DNA of 64,000 nt from Nitrospirota bacterium. Its GTDB lineage: Bacteria; Nitrospirota; Thermodesulfovibrionia; Thermodesulfovibrionales; Dissulfurispiraceae. This document shows, one piece after another, positions 27,220 to 48,552 of the stretch. How positions within the stretch are numbered: position 1 is the first letter of the stretch; each line of letters starts with the position of its first letter. The stretch lies in assembly GCA_963790025.1 (NCBI GenBank), contig CAWBMP010000002.1:96001-160000 (forward strand), in the 5' to 3' direction. The notes under the pieces are model-generated. The model was not told the origin of the DNA. It saw only the letters and a program-made list of their open reading frames with translations, and ran no database searches. A program made the position numbers and the translations under genes.

Positions 27220-27936
27220 ATGGCGAAGCAGGAACTCAGGGCGAAAACAATACAAGAATTGCGTAAAATGGCAAAAACAAAAGGTCTAGTTGCCCGGAGA
27301 GACTGGAAGAAGAAAGATTTCATAAAAGCCCTGTCTTCAAAAAAAGTATCAGGAGGCCAGGTTGCAAAACCGGTTAAGGGAAACCAGGTAAAAAAAACAG
27401 CAGCTAAAAAGCGGGCTGTATCCAAGACAGCAAAAAAGCCGGCAGGTCATACCGCACCTCAGTCGGTTAAGCCGCTTGCAGAATTGGGGCTGCATCCTTT
27501 GCCTGCCGAATACCATGATGACAGGATCGTGTCGATGCCGGTGACTCCCGGACGTTTATATGTATACTGGGAAATACCCGAAAATAAAATTATTGAAAAC
27601 AAAGGTAGTCTTAATATTAAAGCTCTTGATATGAATACTAATTCTTTTTTTTATACGCCTGTTTCCGGGAGAATAGGAGAATCGTTTATCGCTATAAACC
27701 CTGATAGCGACTACTCAATCGAAATAGGCGTTATCAACAGTCAGGGTGAATTTGTGAATATAAGTCAAGTGGGATCAATTTCTGGTATTCCCGAAGTCCA
27801 TACCTGGACGCCGACAGACGGGCCCGCTGAAGATATACCATCCTGCAAACAGCCTGAAACAACCGGACAGGCACCTCAGGGGGCACTGCCCGAAGAGTTT
27901 TTCAAAACACCCGGGTCCATAAACTCGTCATATTAA
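27220..27936 (+). CDS. DUF4912-like protein with Rho-N-like N-terminus and Lys/Ala-rich linker
   Basis: 'KTIQELRKMAK', 'LPAEYHDDRIV.MPV.P..LYVYWEI', ends '...SS'; GGGGGA RBS. Confidence 0.65.
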   Translation: MAKQELRAKTIQELRKMAKTKGLVARRDWKKKDFIKALSSKKVSGGQVAKPVKGNQVKKTAAKKRAVSKTAKKPAGHTAPQSVKPLAELGLHPLPAEYHDDRIVSMPVTPGRLYVYWEIPENKIIENKGSLNIKALDMNTNSFFYTPVSGRIGESFIAINPDSDYSIEIGVINSQGEFVNISQVGSISGIPEVHTWTPTDGPAEDIPSCKQPETTGQAPQGALPEEFFKTPGSINSSY

Positions 27937-43653: not shown

Positions 43654-45006
43654 ATGGACAACGTATTAAAAAAAGTTGAAGCGCTCGCTTTGCAGCATGA
43701 CAGGCTCGACCCGAAAATCATAAAAGAAAGAAATATCAAGCTGGGCCTCAGAAATGAAGACGGCACCGGTGTTTTTGTCGGCATAACGAGCAAGGGCCAG
43801 GTAATGGGGTATGAGAAAATCATCTCCAGTGACGGCACTGCAAAAGTCCATCCTATTCCGGGAAAGCTGTTCTACTGCGGCTATGATGTTGGGGACCTTG
43901 TTGCCGGAAAAGAGCAGGAGGACCGGTTCGGGTTCGATGAGACAGTCTATCTTCTCCTGACCGGCGAACTGCCCTCTGAAGAGGACCTGAAGGGCTTTTC
44001 CCATGAGCTTGCCCTGAGGCGGTCGCTCCCGAAAGAAGTAAAAGAGATGATCCTGAGCGCCCCGCAGCACGACGACCAAATGGGCTCGTTGCATACGATC
44101 ATATCCGCAATGCATCTGTTCGATAAACACCCTAACTCAATGGACATGAAGGATGTTACCCGTCAGTGCATCGATCTGATAGCGAAGTTCCCCACCATCA
44201 TAGCGTACAACTATCAGAAAACGCTTATGAAAAAGAGATCTATGAGAAAACTGCTCGAACCGGACTATAATCTGGGCACCGCGGCTAATTTCTTGTATAT
44301 GCTCTCGGGCAACAGGCCCGACAAAGCAACTGCGGAATTATTCGATACTATGCTCATATTTCATGCCGAACACGGCGGCGGCAATAACTCCACGTTTTCG
44401 ACACGATGCGTCTCATCCTCCGGCGCCAATACCTACATGGCTATCTGCGCGGGTATCGGCTCGCTTTCCGGCCATCTCCACGGCGGCGCTAACGAAGCGG
44501 TGGTAAGAATGATGGATGACATTAAACGCAAAGTCCTGAACTGGGAAGACGACAAAGAAATTGCTAATTACATCTCACAAATCCTTGGAAATGAGGCGGG
44601 GGACAAAAGCGGTAAAATTTATGGCCTCGGCCATGCGGTCTATACCATATCGGACCCGCGTGCCGTATATCTGGAAAAACGGGCAGGCGGACTTGCCGAG
44701 GCGGTCGGCAGGGAAAAGGAATTCGGATTATATAAGAAAGTAGCGGAACTTGCTCCTCAGCTCGTAAAAGAGAAGAAGGGGAAAGTCGTTTGTACGAATG
44801 TCGATTTCTACTCGGGATTTGTCTACCAGTGCATGGGAATTCCGAAAGAACTGTTTACTCCTATTTTTGCCCTGGCCAGAGTATCAGGCTGGTGCGCACA
44901 CAGGATAGAAGAGATGATCCAGGGAAGAATAATAAGGCCTTCCTATGTGTCGTCACTCAAGGGAACTCACAAGTACTTACCCTTGCATAAACGCAAAACA
45001 GAATAG
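43654..45006 (+). CDS. gltA: Citrate synthase
   Basis: 'GLRNEDGTGV', 'AEHGGGNNSTF', 'HGGAN', 'GLGHAVY..SDPR', 'NVDFYSG'. Confidence 0.92.
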   Translation: MDNVLKKVEALALQHDRLDPKIIKERNIKLGLRNEDGTGVFVGITSKGQVMGYEKIISSDGTAKVHPIPGKLFYCGYDVGDLVAGKEQEDRFGFDETVYLLLTGELPSEEDLKGFSHELALRRSLPKEVKEMILSAPQHDDQMGSLHTIISAMHLFDKHPNSMDMKDVTRQCIDLIAKFPTIIAYNYQKTLMKKRSMRKLLEPDYNLGTAANFLYMLSGNRPDKATAELFDTMLIFHAEHGGGNNSTFSTRCVSSSGANTYMAICAGIGSLSGHLHGGANEAVVRMMDDIKRKVLNWEDDKEIANYISQILGNEAGDKSGKIYGLGHAVYTISDPRAVYLEKRAGGLAEAVGREKEFGLYKKVAELAPQLVKEKKGKVVCTNVDFYSGFVYQCMGIPKELFTPIFALARVSGWCAHRIEEMIQGRIIRPSYVSSLKGTHKYLPLHKRKTE

Positions 45007-45023
45007 TTATTTAGTATAGTTGA

Positions 45024-45275
45024 TCACAGACCGAGAGCCTCCCTGATTTCCTTTTCGCTGAATCCGACAATTACCTTATCTCCTATAATTATGGTCGGGA
45101 ATGAACATCTGGGGTTGATTTTTTTTATCCTTTCAAGAATTGCACGGCTCTCTTCCTCAGTCAGCAAATCCACATCCGTGAAATCATATTTTATTGAACA
45201 ATCCGACATCAATTTTTTTGCAGCATTGCAGTGGCAGCAGGTGCTAAGAGTATACATCGTTACGGATTGCATCAT
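45024..45275 (-). CDS. Glutaredoxin/NrdH-like protein (CCHC)
   Basis: 'YTLSTCCHCNAAK', 'SFPTIII...IVGF'. Confidence 0.85.
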   Translation of the reverse strand: MMQSVTMYTLSTCCHCNAAKKLMSDCSIKYDFTDVDLLTEEESRAILERIKKINPRCSFPTIIIGDKVIVGFSEKEIREALGL

Positions 45276-45503
45276 ATGTTCTCCTTCTCCTCAAGTCTTC
45301 AAAACATTTTAGCACAGACAGAGGCAATTTTATGTCACATTAGTCTGTACAATTTCACTAAAGGGCGATATACTTTTATTACGGTACAATCCAATAGCGA
45401 CCGCCATTTTTCAAGGGCAAAGTGATCCTCACCCATTTTATGGTCTACGTTGATTAGATGAATAATGAGCATGTTACGGCAAAACTGGGGATAGTAGACG
45501 GCC

Positions 45504-46547
45504 ATGAGACGAATTCTTCATATAGATATGGACGCTTTCTTTGCCGCTGTGGAGGAAGGACGTCATCCTGAGCTAAAAGGTAAACCTGTAGTCATAGGAG
45601 GCTCCGGCGACCCTACAAAACGAGGGGTGGTTTCCACCGCATCCTATGAGGCCAGGAAGTATGGAGTACATTCCGCATTGCCCTTGAGAACGACATATAA
45701 ACTCTGTCCCCATGCAGTCTTCCTTCCCGTAGATTATGAGGAGTACTCAAGGGTTTCCGGAATAATTAAAAGCATTCTCAGAGAAATCACCCCCGTAATG
45801 GAAGATGTAGGTATTGATGAGGCATTCCTCGACATATCCGCGATCGATATGCCATCAGAGATAATATCACAGGAAATCAAAAAGAGAATCAAAGCGGCAA
45901 CAGGTCTCAGCTGTTCCATAGGCATTGCTCAAAATAAGCTCCTTGCAAAGATTGCCTCTGATATGCAGAAGCCCGATGGTCTAACTATCATTGAGGAGCA
46001 TGACATTGAAGGCAGAATCTGGACATTGCCGGTCAGAAAGCTTTGGGGTGTGGGGCCCAAAACAGAGGAACGCTTCAAAAACATGGGGATACACACTATT
46101 GGAGAGCTTGCTGGACGTCCCCTTGATAAACTTACTGAGGATTTTGGAGAATACTATGGACATTTCCTCTATGAGGCTTCACACGGAAGGGACGAAAGTC
46201 CTCTGGTAACCCATTGGGAGCCCAAATCGGTAAGCAGGGAAACCACATTTGAAACAGATATCAGCAATTGGCAGAGTATTGCAAAGACCATAGCCGAGCT
46301 GACTAAAGAAGTAGTCAACGACATTAAACAGAGGGGCTATAAGGGGAGGACCGTCACACTCAAGGTGCGTTTCAGCGATTTTAAAACACTGACCAGGGCC
46401 AAGACGCTTGATGCGCCCACTGACTCGACCGATGTAATAAGAAAGGCTGCCTTTTTTTGCCTTCAAAAGATTGAGCTCAAGGGAAAAAGAGTGCGGCTTA
46501 TCGGAGTGAGGGTCACCGGACTGGAGCAAGGAGCCACCAAGAATTAA
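45504..46547 (+). CDS. dinB: DNA polymerase IV
   Basis: 'HIDMDAFFA', 'SYEARKYGV', 'IDEAFLD', 'KPDG'. Confidence 0.96.
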   Translation: MRRILHIDMDAFFAAVEEGRHPELKGKPVVIGGSGDPTKRGVVSTASYEARKYGVHSALPLRTTYKLCPHAVFLPVDYEEYSRVSGIIKSILREITPVMEDVGIDEAFLDISAIDMPSEIISQEIKKRIKAATGLSCSIGIAQNKLLAKIASDMQKPDGLTIIEEHDIEGRIWTLPVRKLWGVGPKTEERFKNMGIHTIGELAGRPLDKLTEDFGEYYGHFLYEASHGRDESPLVTHWEPKSVSRETTFETDISNWQSIAKTIAELTKEVVNDIKQRGYKGRTVTLKVRFSDFKTLTRAKTLDAPTDSTDVIRKAAFFCLQKIELKGKRVRLIGVRVTGLEQGATKN

Positions 46548-46621
46548 ACTTTCCCTATATCCCCCCGATAATAATATTGCCAGGGATGATGACATCCTAA
46601 TACTAAACCGGGAGGTATTAA

Positions 46622-46681
46622 ATGGCTACAAAGAAAGCGCCGGCTAAAAAAGCGGCAAAGAAAGCGGCAAAGAAGAAGTAG
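46622..46681 (+). CDS. 19-aa Lys/Ala-rich histone-H1-like micropeptide MATKKAPAKKAAKKAAKKK; not in ORF track
   Basis: GGAGGT RBS 5 nt before ATG; TAG stop; followed by an intrinsic terminator. Confidence 0.8.
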   Translation: MATKKAPAKKAAKKAAKKK

Positions 46682-46706
46682 CTTATTGGAGCCGGCAGTA
46701 TTTTTG

Positions 46707-46755
46707 TAAAGGGAAGGCGGCCTGATTCACTTTGGACCGCCTTCCCTTTATTATT
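46707..46755 (+). terminator. Intrinsic terminator
   Basis: 14-bp perfect IR TAAAGGGAAGGCGG / CCGCCTTCCCTTTA followed by TTATT. Confidence 0.85.
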
Positions 46756-46829
46756 GGCATCGCAAGCTCCGTTCATGCTTCATAAAACCTGAAATGGACA
46801 TTGTTGACAATAGAGCGTAAGATGTCGGG

Positions 46830-47000
46830 ATGGTAAAGACAAGAAGACTGAGCGTTGCGGTGGTGATTATAGCTGTCATTGTCGTGATGGCGCTCCGAGG
46901 TTGTCCCAGAGTCCGGAGAAGCACAAGCATAGCATGCGACTGGGTAACGGCAAACATAACCGGCAGTGCAATGACGGGTACGAACGGCGGATTTCAGTAA
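46830..47000 (+). CDS. Possible small secreted/lipoprotein-like ORF (56 aa) or gene remnant
   Basis: MVKTRRLSVAVVIIAVIVVMALRGC...: basic N-terminus, hydrophobic stretch, then Cys; weak RBS. Confidence 0.3.
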   Translation: MVKTRRLSVAVVIIAVIVVMALRGCPRVRRSTSIACDWVTANITGSAMTGTNGGFQ

Positions 47001-47073
47001 AGAAGCAGATAACATGGAAAATTATCTGGCATTAAATGTAAACTAAATAAGCTATAAGGTATATCGATTTTTC

Positions 47074-48552
47074 ATGCTGACACCACATAAAAACGAATTC
47101 ACTACCGTCATTATGGGCGGCGGTCTTACAGGCCTTTCTGCAGGTTACGCCCTGACAAAAGCAGGGCTCAAGGTGGAACTGTTCGAGAATGAAGCCTCTG
47201 TGGGCGGACTATCAAAAACAATCGTGAGCAGAGGGTTCCGCTTTGACCTTGGCGGTCATCGCTTCTTTACTAAAAATCAGCGGATTAATAGCTTTATAAA
47301 CGACCTTATGGAAGGAGAATTGATTTCCGTCCCCCGAAAAAGCACTATCTATCTGCGCGACAGGTATTTCGATTATCCGTTAAAACCTGTCAATGCACTA
47401 TTCGGAATGGGTATCCAAACCACAGTAAAAATAGTCGAAGATTATATAGCTGAAAAAATACAGGGTCTTGCCAAGGTGCGCCCGCAGCTCTCTCTGGAGG
47501 ACTGGGTGGTCAGTAATTTCGGACGCACTATGTTCGACATCTACTTCCGGGAATACAGTGAGAAAGTATGGGGCATAAACTGCGCGCGCATAAGCGTCGA
47601 TTGGGTGGCGCAACGTATCAGGGGGCTTTCACTTGCCGGTGCGATCAAAAACGCTTTTTTTAAATTCACGGGAAAGGACATCCCCTCTCTTGTGGATAAG
47701 TTTACTTACCCGCAGCTGGGTATAGGACGTATTGCCGAAAGGCTCAGCGAAGAAATAGAAAAGGATAACATTGTGTTTACGGGCTCACCCATAGTAAAGG
47801 TAAAATACTCCGGTTCACGGATAGAAAGTATCGAAGCCGGTGGGCGCTCCACTACGCACCTTGCGTCGGGGGACGCCTTCATATCGAGTATCCCGATCAC
47901 CAAACTGGTACAACTGCTGGACCCTCCCGCTCCGGCTTATGTAATGGACGCAGTTTCAAAACTGATGTTTAGGGACCTCGTCGTTGTTGCCGTTATGGTC
48001 GATAGAAAGCGCGTTACCGGACAAACGTGGATTTATATTCCGGAGAAAAAAATACCCTTCGGCAGGATTCATGAACCGACGAACTGGAGCAACAAAATGG
48101 CCCCTGAAGGAAAGACGCTTCTGGTAGTGGAATACTTCAGTTTTCAGGGAGACCACATTTGGAATGCTTCTGATGAGCGCCTCACCGATATAACTGTCCG
48201 GGGTCTCGAGAAACTCGAATTTATCAAAAAAAGCGAGGTGTCCGGAAGTGCCGTTGTGCGGGCGAAAAAAGCTTACCCACTATTTGAAATCGGCTATGCG
48301 GAACAGTGCGCGCTTCTTTATGATTACCTGAGCACCTTCAGGAACCTTCACCTGGCAGGGAGGGTAGGCATGTTCAGATATTACAATATGGACCACGCGT
48401 TAGAGTCGGGGTTTAATGCAGCAGAGGCGGTGATACAGAAGGCAGGTGAAGGTATAGGCAAAGGTAAAGATAGGGAAGACGACAATTCCGACTTTGCTTT
48501 TGCCTCTACCTCTGCCTCTGCCTTTACCCCGCCCTTAAGGGGCATGCAATGA
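47074..48552 (+). CDS. FAD-dependent oxidoreductase (HemY/UDP-galactopyranose-mutase-like)
   Basis: GGGLTG, 'FDLGGHRFF', 'YSEKVWG', 'GRVGMFRYYNMDH'. Confidence 0.85.
   Translation: MLTPHKNEFTTVIMGGGLTGLSAGYALTKAGLKVELFENEASVGGLSKTIVSRGFRFDLGGHRFFTKNQRINSFINDLMEGELISVPRKSTIYLRDRYFDYPLKPVNALFGMGIQTTVKIVEDYIAEKIQGLAKVRPQLSLEDWVVSNFGRTMFDIYFREYSEKVWGINCARISVDWVAQRIRGLSLAGAIKNAFFKFTGKDIPSLVDKFTYPQLGIGRIAERLSEEIEKDNIVFTGSPIVKVKYSGSRIESIEAGGRSTTHLASGDAFISSIPITKLVQLLDPPAPAYVMDAVSKLMFRDLVVVAVMVDRKRVTGQTWIYIPEKKIPFGRIHEPTNWSNKMAPEGKTLLVVEYFSFQGDHIWNASDERLTDITVRGLEKLEFIKKSEVSGSAVVRAKKAYPLFEIGYAEQCALLYDYLSTFRNLHLAGRVGMFRYYNMDHALESGFNAAEAVIQKAGEGIGKGKDREDDNSDFAFASTSASAFTPPLRGMQ

Follow-up and report, generated by a model that had tools for sequence, protein, structure and literature searches.

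The Micro-ORF and Its Signals

Can an open reading frame of 19 codons, nine of them for lysine and seven for alanine, be a gene in its own right, and what would such a peptide do in the cell? The question is raised by a short interval in the window, i.e., the whole 64,000-nt stretch of DNA that was analysed (G000:C2:96001-160000, G000 being the 3.45-Mb genome of the window; G004 designates a congener). A sequence-only reading had described there a ribosome-binding site, an ORF, a terminator with a 14-bp stem, and a palindrome, and had proposed a stand-alone, histone H1-like micro-gene below annotation cut-offs. The features are as follows:

45504-46547, + strand: upstream neighbour dinB (DNA polymerase IV)
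46542-46595, + strand: 55-bp block, promoter/leader of a small-gene cassette, 84-85% identical to two other G000 sites
46545-46571, + strand: predicted sigma28 (FliA) promoter, TAAACTTT-N11-CCCGATAA, its −35 box overlapping the dinB stop codon
46583-46598, + strand: 5'-UTR hairpin of 6 bp at the palindrome site, weak alone (z −1.5)
46611-46616, + strand: Shine-Dalgarno (SD) sequence GGAGGT, 5 nt 5' of the ATG, in the same context in G004
46622-46681, + strand: micro-ORF translating to MATKKAPAKKAAKKAAKKK-stop, a 19-aa Lys/Ala polycation
46682-46705, + strand: 3' spacer, kept in the G004 copy
46706-46751, + strand: intrinsic-terminator-like hairpin, 14 perfect bp plus an extension and a short U tail
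47074-48552, + strand: downstream neighbour, a flavin-containing oxidoreductase gene, 390 nt past the micro-ORF stop and outside the unit

The ribosome-binding site, the nine Lys and seven Ala, and the 14-bp stem are all present as had been read. Without its Met, the product has 18 residues, a computed mass of 1867 Da, a charge of about +9, and a GRAVY of −1.4; it contains about four Lys clusters and neither aromatic nor acidic residues. The edges of the ORF are its own SD/ATG and its own stop, dinB ending 74 nt upstream. At −11.7 kcal/mol, an energy computed, like the other SD energies given below, against an anti-SD motif, the SD belongs to the top 13% of genome starts. The terminator hairpin (−29.4 kcal/mol, z −6.6) was equalled in stability by 0 of 200 shuffles; a mechanical terminator scan missed it because the scan was limited to loops of 8 nt and the loop here measures 11 nt. 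As no terminator was seen between dinB and the micro-gene, read-through from dinB is possible. An Rfam scan of 45000-48000 returned a single chance-level match (E 2.2) and no known RNA family.

One has to ask how often such an ORF would be met in this genome. Only 6 of the 41,702 ATG-started ORFs of 12-40 aa reach Lys ≥ 30% and Lys + Ala ≥ 55%, and a strong SD precedes only two of these six, the window ORF and its paralogue; no Lys/Ala-rich ORF of this size appeared in any of three genomes after local shuffling (0, 0, and 0).

The palindrome GGATG-N4-CATCC does lie at 46584-46597, and in this respect the earlier reading holds; as DNA, it is at chance level, with three occurrences in the 3.45-Mb genome when about three are expected for ten fixed bases. 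A transcription-factor site was thus rejected, all the more as G004 does not preserve the palindrome exactly. A weak hairpin in the RNA leader is the better reading, located where the transcript is predicted to start; G004 has a similar leader hairpin with G-U pairs (z −1.9), neither of the two being significant alone.

Other Lys-rich ORFs of the genome can be mentioned here. The protein encoded from 27220, in which similar Lys/Ala tracts had been pointed out, does contain a short Lys/Ala linker and is otherwise unrelated and outside the unit: 27220-27936 (+) reads as Rho_N-like, Lys/Ala linker, then DUF4912, the true start being probably 27220 and not 27100. At G000:C5:170691 (+), a probable radical-SAM gene is preceded by one for a stand-alone Lys/Ala protein of 66 aa; the latter has the same position in G008 and G010 and is absent from a collection of 15 billion protein sequences. 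A Lys/Ala tail is fused to a SWIB domain at G000:C4:1722503 (+). Two identical 36-aa Lys-rich ORFs with a strong SD and identical flanks lie at C2:187144 (+) and C4:1216390 (−); with three Cys and one His, they are zinc-finger-like.

Conservation in a Congener and the Ancestral Locus

Among 40 relatives, the unit was found in G004 with its SD, an 18/19-identical peptide, the 3' spacer, and the terminator (z −3.4 for the latter), in a different context adjoining transposase-like ORFs. The two ORFs differ by six synonymous changes and one non-synonymous change. Linkage to dinB was rejected, three congener dinB loci being without a downstream micro-ORF. We call the lineage of the window copy “displaced”; it is present in 2 of the 68 family genomes, and a strict pattern gave 0 matches to it in metagenome contigs.

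The closest named relatives of a marker protein of G000 are labelled Nitrospirae, Thermodesulfovibrionales, and Dissulfurispiraceae, so that the genome probably belongs to the order Thermodesulfovibrionales of the phylum Nitrospirota. Its other copy of the micro-gene, 23 aa long, lies at C4:484377-484448; it follows a gene for a winged-helix (wHTH) protein of 181 aa and is convergent with lpxC. In order to avoid circularity, we defined the family through a protein search with this wHTH anchor and not with the peptide. The anchor gene was found in 70 of 91 genomes of the order (single-copy in 68 of the 70) and not found in the other 21, including all eight sampled from families f4 and f10. Three of the 70 loci, with less than 300 nt of downstream sequence, were excluded; at each of the 67 evaluable loci, there is a Lys/Ala ORF behind the anchor, of 13-138 aa and usually convergent with lpxC. 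Sixty-one of these ORFs were retrieved by a filter for basic ORFs of at most 90 aa, and the six longer ones were read from the sequence. Their lengths (in aa) are stable within clades: 13-14 in f11, 18-23 in f12, 20 in f9, 24-25 in f6, mostly 27-32 in f2, and 57-71 in f5; some genomes have tandem pairs. The SD of the ancestral copies is extreme, with a median of −21.4 kcal/mol (−20.6 kcal/mol for that of G000), both values falling in the top 0.1% of G000 starts, and a significant 3' hairpin follows at 48 of 59 loci. Another 27 anchor loci, five of them within the family and 22 outside the order, gave 26 ORFs that pass the filter; the 27th is, by eye, a Lys/Thr-rich micro-ORF.

Outside the order, a gene lies between anchor and micro-ORF in 21 of the 22 loci; in both cases scanned, this gene is HEPN, and the anchor gene scores as a Polbeta nucleotidyltransferase. 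The anchor gene next to lpxC is apparently a domesticated MNT-HEPN-type module; in G000, it is a wHTH plus nucleotidyltransferase-like gene at C4:484513-485052 (−), and its relatives (L412-L433) have a HEPN partner in other classes of the phylum and stand solo in the order. The micro-peptides of two families outside the order have a C-terminal Cys (L412-L415, L422), which could allow dimerisation or metal binding.

The sequences point to a family of variable length that is vertically inherited in Nitrospirota, the window gene being a displaced copy of its shortest form. It is an extra paralogue, since G004, like G000, also keeps the ancestral copy; the repeats are too short and of too low complexity for the duplication to be dated. 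The search in relatives suggested by the earlier reading returns the unit in a congener, and the anchor search returns the family at 67/67 loci. The reading had asked whether the micro-gene might be left over from a longer gene; this is not the case, as it represents the short members of a family whose lengths are stable within clades. The synonymous-change bias that had also been suggested as a check is found and points to purifying selection, with 6:1 between window and G004 and a pN/pS of 0.225 over 14 non-overlapping equal-length pairs (58/176 synonymous and 46/619 non-synonymous sites), an uncorrected value from related pairs picked by flank similarity, some of which are out of repeat register.

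A third displaced lineage, at L033 (G002) and L030 (G207), consists of 20-aa Lys/Ser/Pro micro-ORFs with SD and terminator; being near-identical in two genera and adjoining an IS element in one of them, it suggests that micro-genes have been mobilised repeatedly.

Composition and Codon Use

Over the family, the composition is 46% Lys, 35% Ala, 12% Thr, 4% Pro, and 0.3% Arg, with near-fixed ends (KKK at the C-terminus in 57 and MA at the start in 60 of 61 ORFs). The following codon statistics come from related genomes, namely from these 61 ORFs at ancestral loci. Lysine is encoded 582 times by AAG and 227 times by AAA, the corresponding counts for the adjacent gene being 547 and 515. None of the 61 ORFs contains a run of eight or more A, when a mean of 26 (minimum 16) is expected at the Lys usage of the neighbour and a mean of 11 (minimum 4) when the ORFs' own Lys codons are shuffled. 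Ribosomes are reported to slide on consecutive AAA codons (PMC4363877), and the absence of long A runs is as expected of a translated gene with clean frame maintenance; avoidance of replication slippage could produce the same pattern. Taking signals, conservation, and codon use together, we are highly confident that this is a real, translated gene, translation itself being inferred from the sequence.

Origin of the Window Promoter

The two octamers of the predicted promoter match the sigma28 consensus, as given in PMC2859248, at 7/8 and 7/8 positions. G000 has fliA (FliA scores above cut-off) and also encodes flagellins, and both flagellin genes carry the same sigma28 motif. The form of the motif with a 15-nt spacer has 16 intergenic matches in G000, against 0-5 for 12 other spacers, in a count made with a pattern that was chosen after the promoter site had been seen. 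A sigma70 scan gave five sites against 3.6 expected.

Each of the two other G000 copies of the 55-bp block precedes a member of a small-gene family of ~40 aa, present in 5 of the 10 genomes of the genus in changing contexts. The cassette block is the probable donor of the window promoter, and we infer from these likenesses that the window unit would be a chimera, a cassette-derived sigma28 promoter having been joined to the micro-gene leader near a shared GGATG. In the G004 copy, a sigma70-like promoter stands in place of the sigma28 one. As the displaced lineage is so restricted and only one of its two genomes has the sigma28 promoter, sigma28 control may be a recent accident. According to PMC12282069, sigma28 has only two targets in chlamydiae, one of which is hctB, and the hctB product Hc2 condenses DNA; the sigma28 likeness between hctB and the window gene is a parallel drawn from one genome, not a homology of regulation.

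The probable donor is a mobile mini-cassette of the genus, made of a sigma28-type promoter, an SD, and a ~40-aa ORF starting M(I/F/V)TKTEL. Its G000 sites are C4:48632-48904 (−) and C4:494057-494184 (+), with further loci at L226-L229 and L232, and its context differs in each of the five genomes that carry it. The 386-aa gene that directly follows a decayed G000 copy looks HDOD-like by eye, and the cassette may thus donate portable sigma28 promoters. A 43-aa ORF similar to the cassette ORFs is found, with a sigma28 motif, at C4:1170578.

Distribution across Phyla

A pattern scan of GTDB genomes retrieved at least 120 loci, by a pattern that forced the micro-ORF termini; the likeness across phyla is one of pattern, and a common ancestry at most putative. 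Among the 121 matches listed, 115 are in frame, 113 also reach at least 60% Lys + Ala, and an in-frame Met further upstream is lacking in 81 of these 113; a significant 3' hairpin is present in 89 of 109. At least ten phyla are represented, among the matches listed, by such genes of 13-23 aa; among the 80 records with titles are Acidobacteriota, Gemmatimonadota, Omnitrophota, Verrucomicrobiota, Proteobacteria, and Bdellovibrionota, as well as Methylomirabilota, Elusimicrobiota, Planctomycetota, Nitrospirota, and one Woesearchaeota record. For the listed matches from other phyla than Nitrospirota, the SD is ordinary (median −9.1 kcal/mol), and the neighbouring genes differ by lineage. The expectation that such genes fall below annotation cut-offs is borne out: none of ten relatives of 20-66 aa is present in the 15-billion-sequence collection.

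Viral loci were rejected as instances of the same unit. The viral scan gave at least 120 loci, of which, among the 120 matches listed, 99 are in frame and 29 Lys/Ala-rich; the commonest look like the ends of longer Met/Gly/Lys repeat ORFs with a weak SD. These ORF ends (L284-L403), KKMMRGG-type repeats followed by AKKK, probably belong to basic DNA-packing proteins of phages.

Relation to Known H1-like Proteins

The AKK/PAKK composition is that of the C-terminal tail of histone H1, presumed to act by charge neutralisation, and is shared by the tails of the actinobacterial HupB and HupS; unlike H1, the window product is a free micro-peptide with no globular or HU domain. Tiny basic ribosomal proteins such as bS22, bTHX, and eL41 are comparable in size (20-35 aa), very basic, and often unannotated, but they are Arg-rich and of fixed length.

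Hc2 is defined by pentamer-like repeats with two Lys plus Ala, Thr, Pro, or Val, its length varying with repeat number (PMC2848022). The window peptide has this arrangement (two basic residues plus Ala/Val/Thr/Pro, with even charge spacing), and in-frame gain and loss of repeats, as in Hc2-like proteins, is seen in the 13-138 aa range at one locus. Like Hc2 (HctB), Bordetella BpH1, and the Burkholderia Hc2-like proteins as they are described, it comes from a stand-alone gene with a pentamer-type composition and repeat-number length variation, and, as for the sigma28-dependent chlamydial hctB (PMC12282069), its promoter is predicted to be sigma28. It differs from Hc2 by its size (19 aa vs. 165-237 aa), by having almost no Arg, by short forms that match no model, and by a sigma28 link that amounts to promoter capture in one genome, no developmental cycle being known for the window organism. 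The KPAA tails of Pseudomonas AlgP and PhaF are also disordered Lys/Ala/Pro polycations of variable repeat number (PMC9239181, PMC12818456); unlike the micro-peptide, which has no partner domain, their 9-30 C-terminal repeats are fused to a folded or anchoring domain.

Three of eight longer positional orthologues (34-138 aa) pass Pfam PF07382 HC2 with 46.2-62.9 bits against a gathering threshold of 40, scores that are partly composition-driven; three others are below the cut-off and two have no match. Seven natural relatives of 20-26 aa, including the 23-aa paralogue, match no Pfam family, and the window 19-mer, below the 20-aa minimum of the scan, is not a PF07382 member by score. With NCBIfam, seven long orthologues reach at best 44 and 40.5 bits against the 135 and 80 of NF038052 (Hc2) and NF038053 (Burkholderia H1-like), and the 23-aa paralogue scores against neither. 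An Atlas feature search with a 34-aa orthologue retrieved a cluster with 17% HC2 members, which is a lead only. Neither the 23-aa paralogue nor a profile of 17 sequences (A2) matched a PDB chain at E ≤ 10, short low-complexity queries being insensitive. As they share position and SD with the long orthologues, the micro-peptides are the short end of one H1-like family and not look-alikes; the proposed stand-alone micro-gene of H1-tail composition is real and conserved, has its own SD, stop, and terminator, and has long positional orthologues in HC2. Searches of the open-access full-text literature turned up no account of stand-alone Lys/Ala genes of 13-25 aa. Three points are added here: a series of positional orthologues that leads without a break from peptides of 13 aa to Pfam HC2 proteins, the evidence from codon use, and the capture of a sigma28 promoter.

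What the Peptide May Do

A peptide of this kind should, as a polyelectrolyte, be disordered and bind polyanions non-specifically. By analogy, it would work like an Hc2 or H1 tail, and we give an even chance to nucleic-acid charge shielding with DNA as the main partner. The unstructured +9 peptide of 18 residues would act by multivalent electrostatics on chromosomal DNA (and RNA), most likely in a shielding and bridging role close to that of a polyamine, with copy number compensating for its short length; the ancestral copy with its extreme SD would supply a basal pool, to which the window paralogue, with its moderate SD and captured sigma28 promoter, would add polycation when FliA is active. 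KPAA-repeat peptides do bind DNA in vitro (PMC9239181). Against this, characterised H1-like bacterial proteins are 165-237 aa long (Hc2) or anchored (AlgP, PhaF), and an 18-mer binds more weakly. Nor is DNA the sole candidate, since PhaF repeats bind specific mRNAs, AlgP repeats space polyphosphate granules, and Hc2 binds RNA, reportedly more tightly than Hc1 does (PMC2848022).

A main partner on the RNA side is unlikely: the peptide could be an mRNA or rRNA chaperone, an initiation modulator like the PhaF tail, or ribosome-bound. The isolated PhaF KPAA tail is reported to bind mRNA and activate translation in vitro (PMC12818456), cationic peptides condense ribosomes and plasmid DNA alike (10.1101/2023.03.09.531820), and one or two copies per genome, an extreme SD, and near-fixed ends would suit such a role; almost no Arg or aromatic residues, no match among PDB chains (with the insensitivity mentioned above), and a tenfold length variation by repeat gain and loss at one locus, which makes for a poor fit to a fixed ribosomal pocket, argue the other way. 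It is improbable that the act of translation matters more than the product, the extreme SD on a poly-Lys ORF parking ribosomes and so stabilising the upstream operon mRNA, or serving as a sink. Iterated Lys slows ribosomes even on AAG (PMC4363877), and both the strength of the ancestral SD and the frequent 3' hairpins would fit; but the protein sequence is maintained in the window and in G004 despite a moderate SD, the SD of the listed matches outside Nitrospirota is ordinary, the orthologues of 100-138 aa are ordinary H1-like proteins, and codon choice favours frame maintenance. Somewhat harder still to credit is a counter-ion or scaffold of storage granules, be they of polyphosphate or of another kind: the spacing of polyphosphate granules requires the KPAA domain of AlgP (PMC9239181), yet AlgP and PhaF tether granules through a second domain that the micro-peptide does not have, and no granule genes are among the recurrent neighbours in the representative sequences inspected.

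The remaining explanations concern the gene more than the peptide. Slightly less credible again is that the family is real and the window copy a passenger duplicate, silent or being lost: its rarity, in genomes and metagenome contigs alike, its two differing contexts, that of G004 beside transposase-like ORFs, and the ancestral copy kept in both genomes speak for this, whereas the 6:1 synonymous bias, a near-consensus promoter in both genomes, and an SD, leader hairpin, 3' spacer, and terminator intact in both speak against it. There is little to recommend the peptide as a third component or substrate of the domesticated wHTH-nucleotidyltransferase/HEPN module. The micro-ORF does lie ~500 nt behind the anchor in those 21 of 22 loci outside the order, with HEPN between them where scanned; however, the micro-ORF persists in the order despite the missing HEPN gene, no anchor gene lies in the fetched stretch around the window copy or around 76 of the 80 named other-lineage loci among the matches listed, and a fused form is not evident in the best 120 of 926 near-length relatives, judged by lengths. 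Finally, a short Lys-rich ORF followed by a terminator recalls a lysine-sensing leader peptide, and such an attenuator is largely refuted by gene orientation, to the point of being barely worth retaining: in 49 of 50 records, the first ORF downstream (mostly lpxC) runs in the opposite direction, no co-oriented biosynthetic operon follows, the next gene in the window is the flavin oxidoreductase 390 nt away, and downstream genes vary by phylum.

What a Ribosome-Made Polycation Would Mean

A broader proposal, which we put forward tentatively and hold to be rather unlikely as it stands, is the following: many bacterial phyla would carry a dedicated, highly translated Lys/Ala micro-gene of 13-25 residues, in effect a polyamine made by the ribosome, with a material share in the compaction of the nucleoid (or RNA). 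The underlying chemistry is that of known H1-like tails, which tempers the interest. Charge neutralisation is one of five compaction mechanisms in a review (PMC11894785), and a 2026 preprint describes an E. coli deltaNAP9 strain, without nucleoid-associated proteins, that is not decompacted, and points to polycations (10.64898/2026.08.21.744486); the micro-gene bears on the share of bacterial chromosome compaction that comes from charge neutralisation as opposed to folded nucleoid proteins.

If the proposal were true, an abundant free polycation would have been missed by gene callers and by tryptic proteomics, one that can be tuned by repeat number, by tandem duplication, and by promoter capture (here sigma28). 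Such a peptide would supply the minimal form that the histone H1-tail lineage has been missing, and would be a candidate for the charge-shielding part of chromosome compaction. A widespread class of genes is, in any case, missing from protein collections, as the search of ten relatives indicates, and the natural series of orthologues of 13-138 aa at one locus makes the relation between length and function testable with synthetic peptides.
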